From IMG/VR virus record IMGVR_UViG_3300012351_000007, positions 21,699 through 85,698 of that record: a stretch of DNA of 64,000 bases. One strand, written 5' to 3'. This document shows, one piece after another, positions 21,308 through 64,000 of this stretch. The notes beneath the pieces are model-generated. The model was not told where the DNA came from. It searched no databases and saw only the letters and a program-made list of their open reading frames with translations. Each line of letters begins with the position of its first letter. The stretch's first letter is position 1. Position numbers and translations under genes: made by a program. Source of the DNA: a virus.

Positions 21308-22987
21308 CTACGTGCTCGCTGGCTGGGTCACGGCGCCGTCCGGGTTCCCGTCGGCGGTGGTTCCGTCCCCCGGTGGGGTGTCGGCCCCCGACATTGGCCC
21401 TGTTCCGGCCGTAGCGGGGTCCTGCCCGGTGCGGGCCAGCCCTGCGGCCGTCTGCCCGAGACTGGTAGGCGCGGACGGCCAGATGAAGTTCCCGTCCTCG
21501 TCGACCTGCGCGGCCACCAGCTCATCGGTTCTGGCCACCCCCATCGCCGTCAAAAGCAGCCGCAGGATCTCCTCGGGCCGGACGGTGCCGGTCGAGTCGG
21601 CCTGCACGATCGCCTGCACCAGCGACAGCGGATCCACCGTCGCCAACTCCGGCCAGGTGATGTCGATCGTGTCGGGGGTGTCCCCGTCCAGGATCACCGT
21701 TTCCCGGTCGTTCTCATCCCGCGTGATCCTGCCCTTGAGGGCGCCCTTCGGCGCGCGCACCGACTCGGCGATCACATGGTCGAGGATCGAGCGCAGGAAC
21801 TCCGACCACAGGGTTTGGCGTTGCGCCATCTCCAGTTCGGTCGGCTGGTCCAGGGTTTCCGCGGTTGCCCGCGCGCCGGTCTGGCCGGGGTCGGCCAGCA
21901 GCATCGTCACCGGCACACCCAACGCCGCAGCGACCATCATTGCCAGGGGCCGGCCGGATTCGGCGTCGATGGTGGCACCGGACTTGGGGATGGCCTCCAG
22001 TGACGCATCGGCCGGCATGATCGCCGTCGCCCCCGACGACAGCGGCAGCCCGGTCGCCGGGTCGATCGACGGCGCAGCGGCTATCTTCGCCCTGGCCTGA
22101 CCTGCGGCCTGACCCTTCGCGGTCAACCTCCACGCAAACCGCGACAGCGACTTGACCAGCCTCGCCCAGTCCTCCAGGAACTCCTTGTACGCCTTCGCCC
22201 AGTCGATCGCGGCATACACGTCCGGTACCCCACGGCGCCAGCCCAGCGGCACGTTGACGGCGAGGTGCACGATCGGGGAGTCCCACGCGATGGGGATCCC
22301 GCCGAACGCCGCCGGCCGCTGCGTGGGCCGGTAGCCGACCGCGGGGTAGAACCGTTCCCGCAGCGTCGGGTTCACGGTCCCCGTCTGGTTGTCGAGGGCC
22401 ATCTCGTTCCAGCGGCGGTGGTAGTACCACGGTTCGGTGGCGTCGTCCGGGTTGCAGATCACGTCGGCGATCTCGTCGGCAACCACCGTCCGTGCCTGCA
22501 CGGTGCCCGTCAGGGGCTTCGTGAACAGGACCACGAAGATTTCCCCGTCGTGGCCAAGTGCCCGCTCCAACTGCTCCCGCGCGGCCGGACCCGTCACGGC
22601 ACGCCGGTTGCCCCGGTCGTCGAGGAAGGCTTGGATGACCGCGTTGACGTCCTGCTCACCGCTGTTGCGCCCATCGGCGCGGGCGGCGAGCTCGACCCCC
22701 TGGCCATGGACATATGCGACCTTAAGGGACAACCCCCGGCGCACCAATGGGCTCTTCAGGGCGTATATCCGGCATATCGCCCGAAGTTGGCGCAGACCCT
22801 CGGGGCGGAACTCGACCTCGGCCAGCGCTGTGAGTCGCACCCAGCCTGGGTCAAAGAGCTGGCGCTCAAGGTCAACTAGACTTTCCTGGAGCAATTCCAC
22901 TGTGGACCGTTCGCGGTCCAGATCCTCCCGCAGTTCCGCCTCGCGCATCTTGCGCTTCGACGGGGCAGCGAGGGCAGGGGTGGACAC
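21308..22987 (-). CDS. Portal protein
   Basis: 559 aa between terminase and MuF; DGEIF, RGVPDVYAAIDWAKAY, GARATAETLDQPT motifs. Confidence 0.88.
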   Translation of the reverse strand: MSTPALAAPSKRKMREAELREDLDRERSTVELLQESLVDLERQLFDPGWVRLTALAEVEFRPEGLRQLRAICRIYALKSPLVRRGLSLKVAYVHGQGVELAARADGRNSGEQDVNAVIQAFLDDRGNRRAVTGPAAREQLERALGHDGEIFVVLFTKPLTGTVQARTVVADEIADVICNPDDATEPWYYHRRWNEMALDNQTGTVNPTLRERFYPAVGYRPTQRPAAFGGIPIAWDSPIVHLAVNVPLGWRRGVPDVYAAIDWAKAYKEFLEDWARLVKSLSRFAWRLTAKGQAAGQARAKIAAAPSIDPATGLPLSSGATAIMPADASLEAIPKSGATIDAESGRPLAMMVAAALGVPVTMLLADPGQTGARATAETLDQPTELEMAQRQTLWSEFLRSILDHVIAESVRAPKGALKGRITRDENDRETVILDGDTPDTIDITWPELATVDPLSLVQAIVQADSTGTVRPEEILRLLLTAMGVARTDELVAAQVDEDGNFIWPSAPTSLGQTAAGLARTGQDPATAGTGPMSGADTPPGDGTTADGNPDGAVTQPAST

Positions 22988-31231: not shown

Positions 31232-31639
31232 TCACAGTCCGATTCCTCTCATGGGGTTGTCGCGCCACATGTCGTACTCCACCGGGGGCGTCGGCTCAGC
31301 CCACCCGGTTAGCGGCGACCAGTACCGCGCCACGATCCCGAGAATCACCGCCGGTGAGCGCTCGCGGTACTCCTGGAAGACGCCAGTCCGCCACCGCCAC
31401 TCTCGGTTGTTACATGAGCGACACAGCCACCCTCGGATACTGCCCGTCTGGTGGTCGTGGTCAAGGACCTCCAAGGTGTCCGCGCACACTGCACATCGGC
31501 CGGCTTGCCATTCGGCGAGGACGGAGTCTCCCGTGAAGTCGGTGGCGGCTGCGGCTGCGGCACGGACGCCATCGCTGATTGGCCACTCCCAGCATGCCGG
31601 ATGCTCCGGGGCGGGCCGCCAGTAAAATACGTCAGTCAC
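31232..31639 (-). CDS. Endonuclease VII-like domain protein
   Basis: QAGRCAVC...LDHDHQTGSIRGWLCRSCN. Confidence 0.78.
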   Translation of the reverse strand: MTDVFYWRPAPEHPACWEWPISDGVRAAAAAATDFTGDSVLAEWQAGRCAVCADTLEVLDHDHQTGSIRGWLCRSCNNREWRWRTGVFQEYRERSPAVILGIVARYWSPLTGWAEPTPPVEYDMWRDNPMRGIGL

Positions 31640-32636
31640 GATCCACCCCGGCGGTGGCGGCAGCCACGAGGTAGGACGGGTCGCGGTCGAGGGATGCGCG
31701 GGCACGGTCGTAGCGCTGGGTGGTGCGCGGGTCGGCATGGCCTAGGGCGTACTGCCGCTCCTCCAGCGGCGCGCCGCGTTCCCGGGCGATGGTTGCCCAG
31801 GCATGCCGGAACGAGTGCGGGGTGATCCTCGCCCAGGAGTTGATGCCAGCCGCTTTCGCCGAGCGGCGCACGAAGGCGGCCACCTGGAAGCGGTTGATCC
31901 GTCGCCCGTCCTCGTCAAGGAACAGCGGACCGGTCGTCCGGTCGCCGACGTATGCGGCCAGCGCGGCGGCCAAATCCGGGGGAACCGCCCGGGTACGGAC
32001 CTTCCCGCCTTTCATCTGAAGAGCGGCCGTGCGGTGCCCCGAGTCGTGGCCAAGGTGCTCAACATCGAGGGCGCAGATCTCCGACACCCGGGCGCCGATC
32101 TCGACGAGGAACCCGGCAAGAGCCGCCCCGCAGGCCGGGCCGAGGAAACGGTCCTTCCTCGCCGCTTCCCGCAGCGCGGTTGCTTCGTCGGCGTTCAGCC
32201 CGATGGTGGTCGTGTGGTCCTTATCCACTCGCGGGCGCCGGACTCGCCCGCACGGGTTCGCGGTGACCTTCCCCGCGTCGAGCAGGTAGCCGTACCACGA
32301 CGAGACGACCGACAGGCGCCGCGCAAGACTCGCCGGGGAGAGCGGGCGGCCGGTTCGGGGGTTGGGGAGGTTGGCGAGCATCGCGGCGAACGCATCGACG
32401 TGGGGGCGCCGGGCGGTGAGCGGGTCCAGTGGCGGTTGGCGTTCGGCGCACCAGGCGAGCCACGCGGTGATGTCGCGGCGGTAGGCGCCACGGGTGTCGG
32501 CTGATTCCCGGAATGACAGGAGCCACGCGGCGGTGAGCGACTGGAGGTCATCGCCCTCGACCGCGGCGACCGGGTCAACGATCTCCCCGTGGATGACTGG
32601 AGCTAGCGCGGTTCTCCCGAGATCGAGATCGGTCAT
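31632..32636 (-). CDS. Tyrosine recombinase, XerC/D-like resolvase
   Basis: SAM-like N-domain; GARVSE, KGGK, HSFRH, LGHA...TQRY catalytic set. Confidence 0.92.
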   Translation of the reverse strand: MTDLDLGRTALAPVIHGEIVDPVAAVEGDDLQSLTAAWLLSFRESADTRGAYRRDITAWLAWCAERQPPLDPLTARRPHVDAFAAMLANLPNPRTGRPLSPASLARRLSVVSSWYGYLLDAGKVTANPCGRVRRPRVDKDHTTTIGLNADEATALREAARKDRFLGPACGAALAGFLVEIGARVSEICALDVEHLGHDSGHRTAALQMKGGKVRTRAVPPDLAAALAAYVGDRTTGPLFLDEDGRRINRFQVAAFVRRSAKAAGINSWARITPHSFRHAWATIARERGAPLEERQYALGHADPRTTQRYDRARASLDRDPSYLVAAATAGVDRD

Positions 32637-32682
32637 AGGCCCGAGGGTAGGCGTCGAGTGGCGTCCGTCGATTGTGCCGCGC

Positions 32683-32710
32683 CGCACACATAAGGGGAAT
32701 TATGTGAGGC
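32683..32710. other. dif/res-like recombination site
   Basis: CGCACACATAA-GGGGAA-TTATGTGAGGC: 11-6-11 geometry with ACATAA/TTATGT inner palindrome, about 50 bp upstream of the recombinase. Confidence 0.75.
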
Positions 32711-60065: not shown

Positions 60066-60482
60066 TTGCGGGGGGATGCGTTGAACGCGAAACGTCGGGG
60101 GCGGCGAATCCACGCCGACATGGTTGCCCGTTGGGGCGGCTTCACTACAGGTGCCCTACTCGTCGCCTACGACCTGGTGACCGTCGTCGCCCAGTTGCCG
60201 AGCCTCCCTGTTGGCCCGCACATCGACCTGTTCGCGGTCGCCCTGGTCCTCGCCGTGTGGGGGTCCATCCGCCGCTTCGAGCGCATCACCATCACCCCGC
60301 AACGGGAGATCTGGCTGCATGGCGTCCAGTACGGCCGGGAAGCCGCCTACGAGGAATGCGGTGCCCAGGGCAGCGTGGTGCCGTTGCCGCTGAACCTGTT
60401 CGCCAGCGACCTCGTACCGGACCGCTCGACGGGGCGGCCAGCCAGCCACCGGCCCAGCCCGCGGCGCCGACGGGCGAACTAG
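60066..60482 (+). CDS. Membrane protein in the lysogeny module
   Basis: Two hydrophobic segments; between repressor and integrase. Confidence 0.55.
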   Translation: MRGDALNAKRRGRRIHADMVARWGGFTTGALLVAYDLVTVVAQLPSLPVGPHIDLFAVALVLAVWGSIRRFERITITPQREIWLHGVQYGREAAYEECGAQGSVVPLPLNLFASDLVPDRSTGRPASHRPSPRRRRAN

Positions 60483-61384
60483 AGCCGGTCGCCGAGGGAC
60501 AGCCGCCGGGATGCCCGCTGCGCCCGCTCCACCTGCGCCGAGCGGCCGTACCGACGTGGCATCTCCGCCGACGACCAGCCGAACAGCGCCATCGCGTCGC
60601 CCTCCGAACCGCCCTGATCGGCCCAGACATGGGCCGAAGTGTGCCGCAACTGGTGGGGGTGGACGTGCCCGATCCCAGCAACCCTCGACCGACGGCGCAA
60701 CATCTGCGTGATCCCGGAGACGGTCAGCGGACCACCCCGGCCACCCAGCCACAGTTCGGGCAGCGACGCCAGCTTGTGCCGGGCGCGCACCCGCAGATAC
60801 CGGTCCAATGATTGCCCTGTGCGGGCGCCGAACGGAATCACCCGGATCTTGTCGCCCTTCCCGTGGATCCGCACGGTGTCGTGGCGCATGTCCAGGTCGG
60901 GTGCCTCCTTCGGTCCGCGGTCCAGCAGCAGACCAGCCATCTCGGCGACCCGGGGTGAACCCGGCTCGCAGAACAGCCGGATGATCGCGGTGTCCCGCCG
61001 GTCCTCGAAGCCCTTCCCCTCGCACACCTTCAGCAGCCGCCGCAACTGGTCGTCGGTCAGGACCGCCACCGGCTCGTCGGTAACGGTCGGCTGGCGCATC
61101 CGAGCCATCGGCGACACGTCGATGATCTCTTCCCGGACGGCCCAGTTGTAGAACGCCCGCAGCGCGCGGAACCGCACTGCCGCAGTCGTTGATGCGTGCT
61201 GGTCGAGGATGTGCGTGATGTACTCCTGCACCTCGGCCTTGGTCAAGCCGAGCACGTCGGCGTCGTTGTGGAGGGCCGCCAGTTGAAGGATCGTCTCGAC
61301 GTAGTTCTGGATGGTGCGGGGCGAGCTGTTGCGGGAGCGCAGGTCGCGGCCGTAGGCGTCGAGGTGGGCGGCGTTGATGTCCAT
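60479..61384 (-). CDS. int: Tyrosine integrase
   Basis: PRVAE, GKGDK, HQLRH, FGWS...RRY catalytic set; adjacent to the att core; TACGCT -10 box (leaderless). Confidence 0.92.
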   Translation of the reverse strand: MDINAAHLDAYGRDLRSRNSSPRTIQNYVETILQLAALHNDADVLGLTKAEVQEYITHILDQHASTTAAVRFRALRAFYNWAVREEIIDVSPMARMRQPTVTDEPVAVLTDDQLRRLLKVCEGKGFEDRRDTAIIRLFCEPGSPRVAEMAGLLLDRGPKEAPDLDMRHDTVRIHGKGDKIRVIPFGARTGQSLDRYLRVRARHKLASLPELWLGGRGGPLTVSGITQMLRRRSRVAGIGHVHPHQLRHTSAHVWADQGGSEGDAMALFGWSSAEMPRRYGRSAQVERAQRASRRLSLGDRL

Positions 61385-61454: not shown

Positions 61455-61491
61455 ACAAGAAGGCCACCTGAACTTCCTGCTCAGGTGGCCT
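61455..61491 (-). terminator. Terminator downstream of the tRNA fragment
   Basis: AGGCCACCTGA/TCAGGTGGCCT stem followed by TCTTGTT on the minus strand. Confidence 0.75.
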
Positions 61492-61493
61492 GC

Positions 61494-61537
61494 TGCGCGC
61501 CCGAAGGGACTCGAACCCCCAACCTTCTGATCCGTAG
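61494..61537 (-). other. att core = 3' half of tRNA-Arg(ACG)
   Basis: CTACGGATCAGAAGGTTGGGGGTTCGAGTCCCTTCGGGCGCGCA: anticodon loop, T-arm and acceptor 3' strand; 5' half absent. Confidence 0.88.
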
Positions 61538-61606
61538 TATGCGGCCTGTAAGCGCTGTGGCGCACCGTGTCTGACCTCGTACTGGTCGGGAGCGTGGAAA
61601 CGCAGA

Positions 61607-61825
61607 TCAGATGCTATTGGCTACAGCGCTTCGTGCACCGCTCGCGGCCGTGGCGACCCACTCCCCGTCGACCTGCGCCACGTAGCTGCGGAGCAGACCA
61701 CGGTCGGCCTCCCGGATCGGCTCGTTGCATCCGAAGCAGACCTCGCCGACCGGTGTCGGTACCTGCTCGGCGTTCTCATCCAGCAGAGGGGCGTCCCAGC
61801 GGGGACCGAAGTAGAAGGTAGTCAC
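61607..61825 (-). CDS. Phage-like hypothetical protein (possibly truncated)
   Basis: TTFYFGPRWDAP...CFGC. Confidence 0.5.
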   Translation of the reverse strand: MTTFYFGPRWDAPLLDENAEQVPTPVGEVCFGCNEPIREADRGLLRSYVAQVDGEWVATAASGARSAVANSI

Positions 61826-62172
61826 GGGGGTATCAACGAGCGCGAGCCGGACATGCCTCAGCCCCGGCTGATCCGGACTCCCCCGGGCCGGGGCTGAGCG
61901 CAGAGCCGTCCTCCACTTGACGCGGACCCGGACGGTCGTTCCGCGCTGCGGACCGGAGCTGCCTACCGATCGCGAGCTTTCACTACTCCGCCGCCCGGTG
62001 TCAGTCCGGAGGGGCGTCCCCGGATACGGCACCGCACAGCCGTTTCGCTACGCCGGGGGTCTAGGTCGGTAGGTACCCGCCCCGGTTCGGCCTTATCACT
62101 ACCCGATCCGGGTCAGCGTAGCGCCGGGGTACGACACGAATCCACGAACGCCGCACGGGTACCGTCCGGATC

Positions 62173-62415
62173 GTGCAATACCGCTTCCTCGGCGCCTACC
62201 AGACCCCGGACGGACGGTGGCGGATCGAGGTCTGGGCAGGACGTGGGGCGCAGTGGTACACCGTGCTCCACGACGGGCAGGTTTACGACCGGGACGGCTT
62301 CCTGTGCGAGCGGGTGCCCCTCGGCACCGTCGAGGCGGTGCTGCGCGCCAACGGGGTCAGCATGGCCGACCTGCGGCCGGAGACTGCGGACGGGCCGGAC
62401 GACGGACCAGCGTGA
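62173..62415 (+). CDS. Hypothetical protein (80 aa)
   Basis: TPDGRWRIEV...GVSMADL; high GC3. Confidence 0.6.
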   Translation: MQYRFLGAYQTPDGRWRIEVWAGRGAQWYTVLHDGQVYDRDGFLCERVPLGTVEAVLRANGVSMADLRPETADGPDDGPA

Positions 62416-62665
62416 GCCCGTCCAGGTCAACTGGCATCCACCGGTCCACGCCTGCGGTTTGCGCCGCCCACCGCTGCTCGTTCGCCATGCGGCGGATCAG
62501 CACCGCCTGCCCCTTCCCTACCCGGCCGCACACCACCGACCACACCTTGTCCCGCACCCGGGCACTGGGAGTGCCGACGAACACGCCCGGGGCGATCTCC
62601 ACCATCCACCGGGTCAGATGCCCGCGCAGCCCGGACGGTGCGGCGATAAGCACGATGACCGTCAT
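62357..62665 (-). CDS. cas2: CRISPR-associated Cas2, type I-E
   Basis: APSGLRGHLTRWMVEIAPGVFVG..SARVRDKVW, NEQ, PVDLDGLTLV. Confidence 0.95.
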   Translation of the reverse strand: MTVIVLIAAPSGLRGHLTRWMVEIAPGVFVGTPSARVRDKVWSVVCGRVGKGQAVLIRRMANEQRWAAQTAGVDRWMPVDLDGLTLVRRPARPQSPAAGRPC

Positions 62666-63663
62666 TGCTCGTCCAGCTCCGACCAGTCCACCTTGCCTAG
62701 GTCGACCGCCTCCTGCTCATCGGCCCAGTTCCGTCCCGCCGGCACGGCACCGTTGGTGTCCCACAACTGGGCGCGATGTACGTCCGCCTCGTCGTCGAGC
62801 CCGTCTGGCTCCTCTTCCCCGGCGGTGGCCTTGTCCTCGCCGAGCAGCAGGGCTTGGATGTCCCGTACCACCCGGGCCATCAGCCCCTGCTCCACCACCA
62901 GATCCCGGAATCGGGTCCGCGCCGCCGACTCCTCCGTGGCGCCTTCGGACATCAGATCGAATGCGGCCGGGATCGTCGTCATGGCTTTGTACAGGTCGGC
63001 GATGTCGAGCACGAACGAGATGGCCGACCCGGTGTGGACGAAGCCGAGTGCTGGGCTGGCACCCAGGCCGACGGTGGCGGCGTGGCACACCCCGTAGAGG
63101 CAGGCGTTGAGCGCCGACAGTACCCGGTTGATGTCGTCACCGGCTGCGAACGGCTTCCCGGCCACATACTTGCGCCCGGACCACGCAACCCCGGTGCGGG
63201 AGGCGTGCAGCCGGTAGGAGCGGCGCACCCGGGCACCCTCCCGGCCCCGCAGTTGCTGCATCGACAGTTTGGAAACGTTCTCGCCAGGGAACCGCATCTG
63301 GTACATCTGCCGGGCAACACCGAGGCGCCGCTTGTTGTCCGACACCAGCCAGGCTTGGCGCTGCAGGTAGCGGGATGTGTGGGCGGTGGACACGCCGTGG
63401 GCATACATCCGGACGCCGTTCTCCCCGACCCAACAGACGGTGGTCCCGGAATCGGCCAACAGCCGCACCGCGCTGTGGGTCACCTTCGTGCCCGGTCCGA
63501 GTAGCAACGCGGACACCATTGCGGCCGGCAGGTGGGTTTCGCCCTCGGCGTCCAGGAGGGTGACCGCGTTGTCTTCGCGGCCGATCACGGCCCGATCAAC
63601 GTAGACCGTTGAGATTCGCTCCCCGATCCGGGTGAGCATTCCTGTCTCTGCTTTCCACCACAT
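62662..63663 (-). CDS. cas1: CRISPR-associated Cas1, type I-E
   Basis: LLLGPGTKVTH, WVGENGVRMYA, QLRGREGARVR, LGFVHTG, FVLDIADLYK; catalytic E/H/D intact. Confidence 0.96.
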   Translation of the reverse strand: MWWKAETGMLTRIGERISTVYVDRAVIGREDNAVTLLDAEGETHLPAAMVSALLLGPGTKVTHSAVRLLADSGTTVCWVGENGVRMYAHGVSTAHTSRYLQRQAWLVSDNKRRLGVARQMYQMRFPGENVSKLSMQQLRGREGARVRRSYRLHASRTGVAWSGRKYVAGKPFAAGDDINRVLSALNACLYGVCHAATVGLGASPALGFVHTGSAISFVLDIADLYKAMTTIPAAFDLMSEGATEESAARTRFRDLVVEQGLMARVVRDIQALLLGEDKATAGEEEPDGLDDEADVHRAQLWDTNGAVPAGRNWADEQEAVDLGKVDWSELDEQ

Positions 63664-63785
63664 GCCGGAAGATGCTGCCGCCCGGGCGTCGGGCCGGGCA
63701 ACGTTCCGAACGGGTGAACCGATGCGGCCGGGCCGCTACCCAGCGGCTGGTAGCCCAATCGGAGCTATTTTTGGAGTCCTTCTTG

Positions 63786-64000
63786 ACACGCTCATGCGCG
63801 CCCGGGCCGGCCTGCCGTACCGGCGGGTCCGACACAACGCGACTCCGCCATCCCCGCGCGCCCGGACCGGACGGCGGCGGCCCGGTCACCGAGACGCAGG
63901 GCCAGCCGCCACCCCCGCGCGCCCGGACCGGACGCACCGCACGCACCGCCCTCGACTGGGCCTGCACCGCCACCCCCGCGCGCCCGGACCGGCCCACCAC
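63786..64000 (-). CRISPR. Atypical type I-E-derived CRISPR array (runs off the window edge)
   Basis: 29-bp repeats at 63845, 63906 and 63967 (61-bp period, unique 32-bp spacers) plus a degenerate terminal repeat at about 63786-63812. Confidence 0.85.

Follow-up and report, generated by a model that had tools for sequence, protein, structure and literature searches.

A type I-E cas1-cas2 pair and array trailer at the end of a siphovirus contig, the probable adaptation half of a hybrid CRISPR locus with a Cas12n-like effector

Type V-N CRISPR loci, built around the nuclease Cas12n (C2c9), carry no canonical adaptation module, and their protospacer adjacent motif (PAM) is one common to co-occurring type I systems (10.1101/2024.04.09.587696; PMC12721324). 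The published Cas12n needs a trans-activating CRISPR RNA (tracrRNA) that overlaps its own open reading frame (ORF), and it recognises 5'-AAN (PMC12216341). The Thermus Lalka phages carry Cas12r, a small type V effector, together with an array of I-E-like repeats (29 bp) and spacers (32-33 bp) that grows by insertion beside the effector gene; the PAM has an overlap with the I-E AAG. Adaptation genes are missing from these phages, for which a borrowing of the host I-E Cas1-Cas2 has been proposed (10.64898/2026.04.20.719267). Further, TnpB-derived Cas12 lineages have captured adaptation modules at least 12 independent times, according to the survey of Altae-Tran et al. 2023 (PMC10691335). Here, we describe a CRISPR locus at the end of IMG/VR virus record IMGVR_UViG_3300012351_000007, in which the last 64,000 nucleotides (positions 21,699 to 85,698 of the single 85,698-bp record, hereafter the window, base 64000 of which is the record's final base) close with a type I-E cas1-cas2 pair and an array upstream of it. 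We conclude that the window probably contains the adaptation half and the array trailer of a small hybrid CRISPR system whose effector would be Cas12n-like.

The type I-E pair and its upstream array

The CRISPR end of the window is made up of the following features:

62357-62665, minus strand: cas2, 102 aa, type I-E Cas2e (CT1978/Cas2e family), by PF09707 and TIGR01873 matches
62662-63663, minus strand: cas1, 333 aa, type I-E Cas1e, by TIGR03638 and PF01867 matches
63664-63783, minus strand: non-coding stretch of 120 nt from the array trailer to the cas1 start, locally richer in A+T, read from the sequence
63784-63812, minus strand: terminal repeat with conserved 5' half and degenerate 3' half (minus-strand sense), that is, the trailer end, by sequence comparison
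63845-64000, minus strand: CRISPR array with three full repeats (63845-63873, 63906-63934, and 63967-63995), by repeat finding and a whole-contig scan

A preliminary description of this stretch, made from its letters, had proposed a type I-E cas1-cas2 pair with the array upstream, and both the Cas1e and Cas2e model scores and the repeat scan bore this out. The Cas1 scored 340.3 bits on TIGR03638 (Cas1e; curated cut-off 215.6), and the Cas2 scored 108 bits on PF09707 (2.4e-31) and 61.7 bits on TIGR01873 (cut-off 33.15). The closest solved structures to the Cas1 were 8HI1, the best match at 1e-88, and E. coli Cas1 3NKD at 1e-58. Residues E142, H210, D220, and D223 occupy invariant columns of a 14-sequence alignment, and we take them to be the counterparts of the E. 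coli catalytic residues E141, H208, D218, and D221; by this alignment the enzyme looks catalytically intact, as the same description had stated. The two genes run in the same direction and overlap by 4 nt. The array has a period of 61 nt, each unit consisting, in the sense of the CRISPR RNA (crRNA; minus strand), of a 28-nt repeat and a 33-nt spacer, and its trailer faces cas1: the degenerate terminal repeat stands 120 nt before the cas1 start, in agreement with the roughly 120 bp of non-coding DNA and the degenerate array end described before. No sigma-70-like promoter was found between array and cas1. The record breaks off inside the array, 5 nt past the third full repeat. The earlier view of a "stand-alone" module with no adjacent interference genes is not supported, since that appearance arises because the contig ends inside the array, which is a limit of assembly.

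Compared with type I-E of E. coli and actinobacteria, the locus is alike in its Cas1e and Cas2e family members, its 61-nt period with 28-29-nt repeats and 32-33-nt spacers, and a retained 3' repeat arm, GCGCGGGG. It differs in three respects. First, the 85.7-kb contig lacks cas3, cse1, cse2, cas7, cas5, and cas6e: tblastn searches of it with the I-E locus ORFs of five relatives (L001-L003, L005, and L006; those of L001 being Pfam-confirmed Cas3, Cse1, Cse2, Cas7, Cas5, and Cas6e) matched only cas1 and cas2, and no Cascade or cas3 homolog was found. The statement that no Cascade is adjacent thus stands for 85.7 kb on one side, whereas as a general claim it does not follow from a contig that ends in its array. 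Second, the array lies upstream of cas1, not downstream of cas2. A neighbourhood survey, which the preliminary description had proposed together with a Cas1 phylogeny, found that in 53 of 55 genomic loci (Cas1 relatives on contigs of one genome per species) cas1 immediately follows cas6e and the array comes behind cas2, which is the canonical order, so that the architecture is non-canonical as had been stated. Among 16 viral contigs collected by a search with the Cas1 alignment, four (L143, L146, L157, and L158) have array, cas1, and cas2 on one strand without cas6e. Third, the Cas6e hairpin is lost. The repeats of the array-upstream group keep I-E length and period and lack the 7-8-bp CCCCGC/GCGGGG stem, whereas in the closest canonical relatives this stem forms with 7-8 bp and folding energies of -13 to -15.5 kcal/mol; in the window, the 5' arm opposite the retained 3' arm reads TCCGGGC and does not pair with it, and the loss extends to every repeat copy of the window and of the two same-repeat arrays described below (L078 and L096).

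In a maximum-likelihood tree, the window Cas1 is sister to the canonical I-E clade (Frankia, Streptomyces, Actinokineospora, and Phycicoccus; support 100/99) on a branch of length 0.68, against a median of 0.16, and a large protein search placed its own metagenomic relatives at 63-78% identity. The window spacers, which the preliminary description had hoped to match to phage databases and to this phage itself, gave chance-level matches only against their own contig, all fetched loci, and 50,697 phage records, and with no protospacer found, no PAM, target, or self-targeting was identified for them.

Arrays with the same repeat beside a Cas12n-like gene

Metagenome contigs were scanned with a 19-nt core of the repeat, which returned 81 loci, only two of which, L078 and L096, are arrays. 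Both carry a 28-nt repeat identical to that of the window, and in both a gene for a 684-aa protein lies on the same strand as the array with its stop codon 65 nt before the first repeat. This protein matches PF01385 (OrfB_IS605), PF12323 (HTH_OrfB_IS605), and PF07282 (Cas12f1-like TNB), and in L078 its NCBIfam assignment is guided_TnpB, with IS607_TnpB below cut-off. Its best solved relative is 9J09 (4e-39), ahead of ISDra2 TnpB at ~1e-19 to 2e-19; 9J09 is the Cas12n of Rothia dentocariosa (RdCas12n), type V-N, formerly V-U4 (PMC12216341). The L078 residues aligned to Rd D287, E386, and D484 are D, E, and D, and the RuvC triad is thus apparently intact and the protein apparently nuclease-active, judged from alignment. 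A 425-aa TnpB of an insertion sequence on the window's own contig (contig 16429-17706) was also considered as effector and rejected: it lies 68 kb from the array and aligns, at 29% identity, with the C-terminal half of the L078 effector only.

L078 and L096 are 99.6% identical outside the array, and the spacers next to the effector gene differ between them, with a third variant at the effector-proximal position in the soil runs X2 and X3. Effector-proximal spacers that vary between near-identical strains indicate that the effector end is the leader and that this lineage is still gaining spacers. The window array end complements the L078 and L096 ends: it has the same repeat polarity and passes through a degenerate terminal repeat to cas1-cas2. 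Two side observations concern these contigs. A leader-proximal spacer of L096 (L096:81-113) and the X2/X3 loose end at L078:13137, from different samples, are ~75% alike and may stem from one and the same region in diverged targets. Separately, a 3.9-kb segment (L078:2004-5889) with a second TnpB-like gene (635 aa; PF07282, guided_TnpB below cut-off) is skipped in each of the four runs by a contig that has 28 other letters instead and a joint side of only 24 nt; it looks like an insertion polymorphism. Close-relative searches found no near relatives of the window Cas1, the repeat core, or the L078 effector in viral contigs, and 401 sampled Actinomycetota genomes returned only ordinary TnpB matches, to the C-terminal half of the L078 effector.

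The cas end of the window and the effector end of L078 occur in the same communities, which is co-occurrence and not linkage. In four public soil runs, drawn from three studies, 91-94% of the words sampled from window 61600-64000 are present, and all four cover L078 end to end, including the effector and leader with 0 differences over 4 kb (for example, by a 4,045-nt contig over L078 9093-13137).

A contiguous arrangement is found in a homologous locus, L157, on a 202,490-bp phage contig that CheckV rates 98% complete. Here, one strand carries without interruption a gene for a 595-aa Cas12n-like protein, 36 nt, eight repeats of 61-nt period, cas1, and cas2. The effector has the same three Pfam domains as the L078 protein and again RdCas12n 9J09 as best solved relative (1e-60), so that, by best solved match, both effectors may be called Cas12n-like. 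The L157 Cas1 and Cas2 are 39% and 51% identical to those of the window, and the RuvC of its effector (L157:5556-7343) is altered, with D to E and E to R at the first two acidic residues of the L078 protein. The L157 phage holds four further TnpB-like genes. On L151, a viral contig from a family of split I-E loci, a TnpB gene (L151:9285-10502) stands directly after cas2 where relatives have the array, and may illustrate how a TnpB inserts into an I-E array.

The L078 effector resembles the described type V-N enzymes (RdCas12n 9J09 and AcCas12n) in being TnpB-derived, in combining RuvC with the TNB zinc-finger, in having RdCas12n as best solved relative, in the short distance from the 3' end of its gene to the first repeat, and in its setting of high-GC DNA of actinobacterial type. 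It is unlike them in its larger size, the stretch that separates the WED/REC region from RuvC being ~250 residues longer, and it is known from other contigs than the window's own; moreover, I-E cas1-cas2 follow the window array, whereas published Cas12n loci have no adaptation module (10.1101/2024.04.09.587696; PMC12721324). With the Lalka Cas12r system, the proposed locus would share the phage-borne small type V effector, the I-E-like repeat and spacer lengths, the addition of spacers beside the effector gene, and the relation of the PAM to the I-E motif; it differs in host phylum, in effector family, and in that cas1-cas2 are linked to the array in the window whereas the Lalka phages lack them (10.64898/2026.04.20.719267). 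Like the captures reported by Altae-Tran et al. 2023, in which TnpB comes to lie beside a pre-existing array and cas1/cas2 are then captured, it would have followed this general evolutionary route; that survey excluded loci whose arrays are linked to non-type-V systems, and the text consulted contains no description of a Cas12n-like effector served by I-E Cas1e-Cas2e (PMC10691335). A locus that combines a Cas12n-like effector with I-E cas1-cas2 of its own is therefore a variant of known systems and not a new category, and the window shows its adaptation half only.

The mobile element and its attachment site

The contig is that of a siphovirus, with genes for a tape-measure protein, portal, large terminase (TerL), capsid protease, DnaB-like helicase, exonuclease, and two tyrosine integrases. 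One integrase lies near the cas genes, and the second, at window 31632-32687 (phrog_1, 2e-37), is placed mid-phage between the early and the packaging genes. Further features towards the CRISPR end are:

60479-61384: integrase, faced by the tRNA fragment, by a Pfam match
61461-61545, minus strand: 3' fragment of a tRNA-Arg(ACG), the attachment (att) core, with a terminator hairpin, by a 26-nt pattern match
62173-62415, plus strand: convergent ORF of 80 aa that overlaps the 3' end of cas2 by 59 nt

The tRNA fragment and hairpin stand between the integrase and the cas genes, so that cas1-cas2 lie across the fragment from the integrase, and an att core about 0.8 kb from cas2, as first described, is indeed present at about that distance. 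No intact tRNA was found at this site by ARAGORN, even at relaxed thresholds, or by Rfam, and the 85.7-kb contig holds no second copy of the att core of at least 14 nt. Exact or 2-mismatch matches of the 26-nt pattern occur in Frankia and Phycicoccus, those with two mismatches being the 3' ends of intact tRNA-Arg(ACG) genes. An intact tRNA-Arg(ACG) is accompanied by a partial 3' copy 16 kb away in Frankia nepalensis (L166/L168) and 5.5 kb away in Phycicoccus sp. (L167/L165), which suggests islands integrated at the same tRNA-Arg in both.

The 3' end of the window fragment points at the integrase. A simple border between prophage and host in such orientation should carry an intact tRNA. The orientation of the fragment, with no intact tRNA, is the geometry either of a phage attachment site (attP) or of the point where two tandemly integrated elements meet, and under either reading it is plausible that cas1-cas2 are on mobile DNA.

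The convergent gene at the end of cas2 had been called small and phage-like. Its presence stood up, with gene-like codon bias (0.89 G+C at third codon positions, GC3), while "phage-like" is unsupported, as the ORF has no Pfam, NCBIfam, or PHROG match. No homolog of it adjoins cas2 in related loci, and the array-upstream loci have no conserved genes 3' of cas2.

The proposed hybrid system and competing explanations

The order that we propose, on one strand, is a Cas12n-like (TnpB-derived, type V-N-like) effector, a short leader, an I-E-derived array, cas1e, and cas2e. Cas1e-Cas2e would capture fragments of ~33 bp and insert them at the effector-proximal repeat, that is, at the leader. The array would be transcribed from the effector side, and read-through may also serve cas1-cas2, which we propose because no promoter of their own was detected. 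With cas6e absent and the repeat hairpin lost, the transcript would mature without Cas6e cutting; the Cas12n-like nuclease would then take it up, probably together with a tracrRNA, as described Cas12n does, and this nuclease, with its apparently intact RuvC D/E/D, would cut matching DNA of competing elements. An I-E integrase that chooses AAG-flanked protospacers would account for the unusual 5'-AAN PAM of Cas12n. Located in or beside a temperate siphovirus at a tRNA-Arg integration site, the system would probably act against competing mobile elements. We consider this course from capture to cleavage the most likely one, with reasonable rather than high confidence, and we lean slightly towards the claim that a temperate actinophage or an adjacent island carries a self-sufficient hybrid of I-E Cas1-Cas2, a hairpin-less I-E-derived array, and a nuclease-active Cas12n-like reader. 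The earlier suggestion of a non-canonical effector beyond the window fits this evidence, indirectly, in that identical-repeat arrays abut a Cas12n-like gene, the two ends co-occur in all four runs, and a homologous locus is contiguous.

Several observations weigh against a hybrid locus in one piece. No read or contig was found that joins the window array to the Cas12n-like gene, and the four soil runs apparently amount to two pairs of near-duplicate data sets (X1/X4 and X2/X3). CheckV estimates the completeness of the 85.7-kb record at 97%, which is awkward with at least 17 kb more of the same phage and counts mildly. In L078, duplex and local-alignment scans for an anti-repeat or tracrRNA gave nothing above the GC-rich background. 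L143, a viral record of 68.8 kb, has at least 11 repeats followed by cas1 and cas2 (L143:7059-9175), with no TnpB-like or Cascade gene anywhere on the record; it may be a truly effector-less adaptation module, in which case such versions exist. (The genes upstream of the L143 array look host-like: peptidase A4, NUDIX, and GT2.) Finally, by the tree, the window Cas1 is not grouped with the Cas1 of the other array-upstream loci, since those of L143, L146, and L158 form a separate clade and that of L157 sits on a very long branch. These separate positions mean that the array-upstream architecture does not correspond to one Cas1 clade, and this reflects either repeated capture of I-E adaptation modules or sequences that evolve too fast for reliable placement.

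Several of the same observations would suit a system split over two arrays, in which the element has cas1-cas2 and its own array while the effector and a second array of the same repeat lie elsewhere in the cell, supplied in trans across replicons. In its favour are an identical repeat and co-occurrence with no physical link; L143 and the near-complete record lacking an effector agree with it, and the published Cas12n and Cas12r loci, themselves without adaptation genes, are thought to borrow them (10.1101/2024.04.09.587696; 10.64898/2026.04.20.719267). However, the metagenome scan gave only leader-plus-effector ends for the window repeat, with no second leader or trailer, the two contig ends complement each other in both polarity and strand, and L157 has all parts contiguous. 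We consider the split arrangement unlikely.

Rearranged but otherwise ordinary type I-E, in which these crRNAs serve a Cascade and cas3 encoded past the array or at another place in the host, is a good deal less probable again. It draws on bona fide I-E Cas1 and Cas2, on I-E-like repeat length, spacer length, and 3' arm, and on a contig that stops at 64000 with the sequence past the array unseen; set against it are 85.7 kb without Cascade or cas3, the missing cas6e upstream of cas1, repeat arms that stay unpaired in all copies, and same-repeat arrays that flank a TnpB-derived gene and not Cascade. The proposal that the element records DNA for a host Cascade is likewise not supported, given repeats without the Cas6e hairpin. 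Least probable, by a little, is a decaying, non-functional remnant of orphan cas1-cas2 and old repeats after loss of the interference genes. In its favour are the small number of visible repeats (three full and one degenerate), the broken hairpin, the long Cas1 branch, and spacers for which no target was detected. Against it, the two ORFs are full length and have gene-like GC3 and invariant catalytic residues, leader spacers of same-repeat arrays turn over between near-identical strains, and the repeat with the broken hairpin is the same from copy to copy and from contig to contig, which points to a selected consensus rather than random decay.

For annotation, "orphan" cas1-cas2 genes at contig ends are not to be read as effector-less. 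For the family, Cas12n has been regarded as an early intermediate between TnpB and Cas12 without spacer-acquisition genes of its own. If true, the hybrid locus would show a class 2 effector adopting class 1 adaptation machinery, as a natural case in which a class 1 module is permanently tied to a class 2 effector, and would offer a direct explanation for the A-rich AAN PAM of Cas12n. It would also provide a small system of only four parts (effector, array, cas1, and cas2) for tests of how adaptation and interference are coupled, with an effector that is apparently nuclease-active, unlike the L157 version with its altered RuvC.

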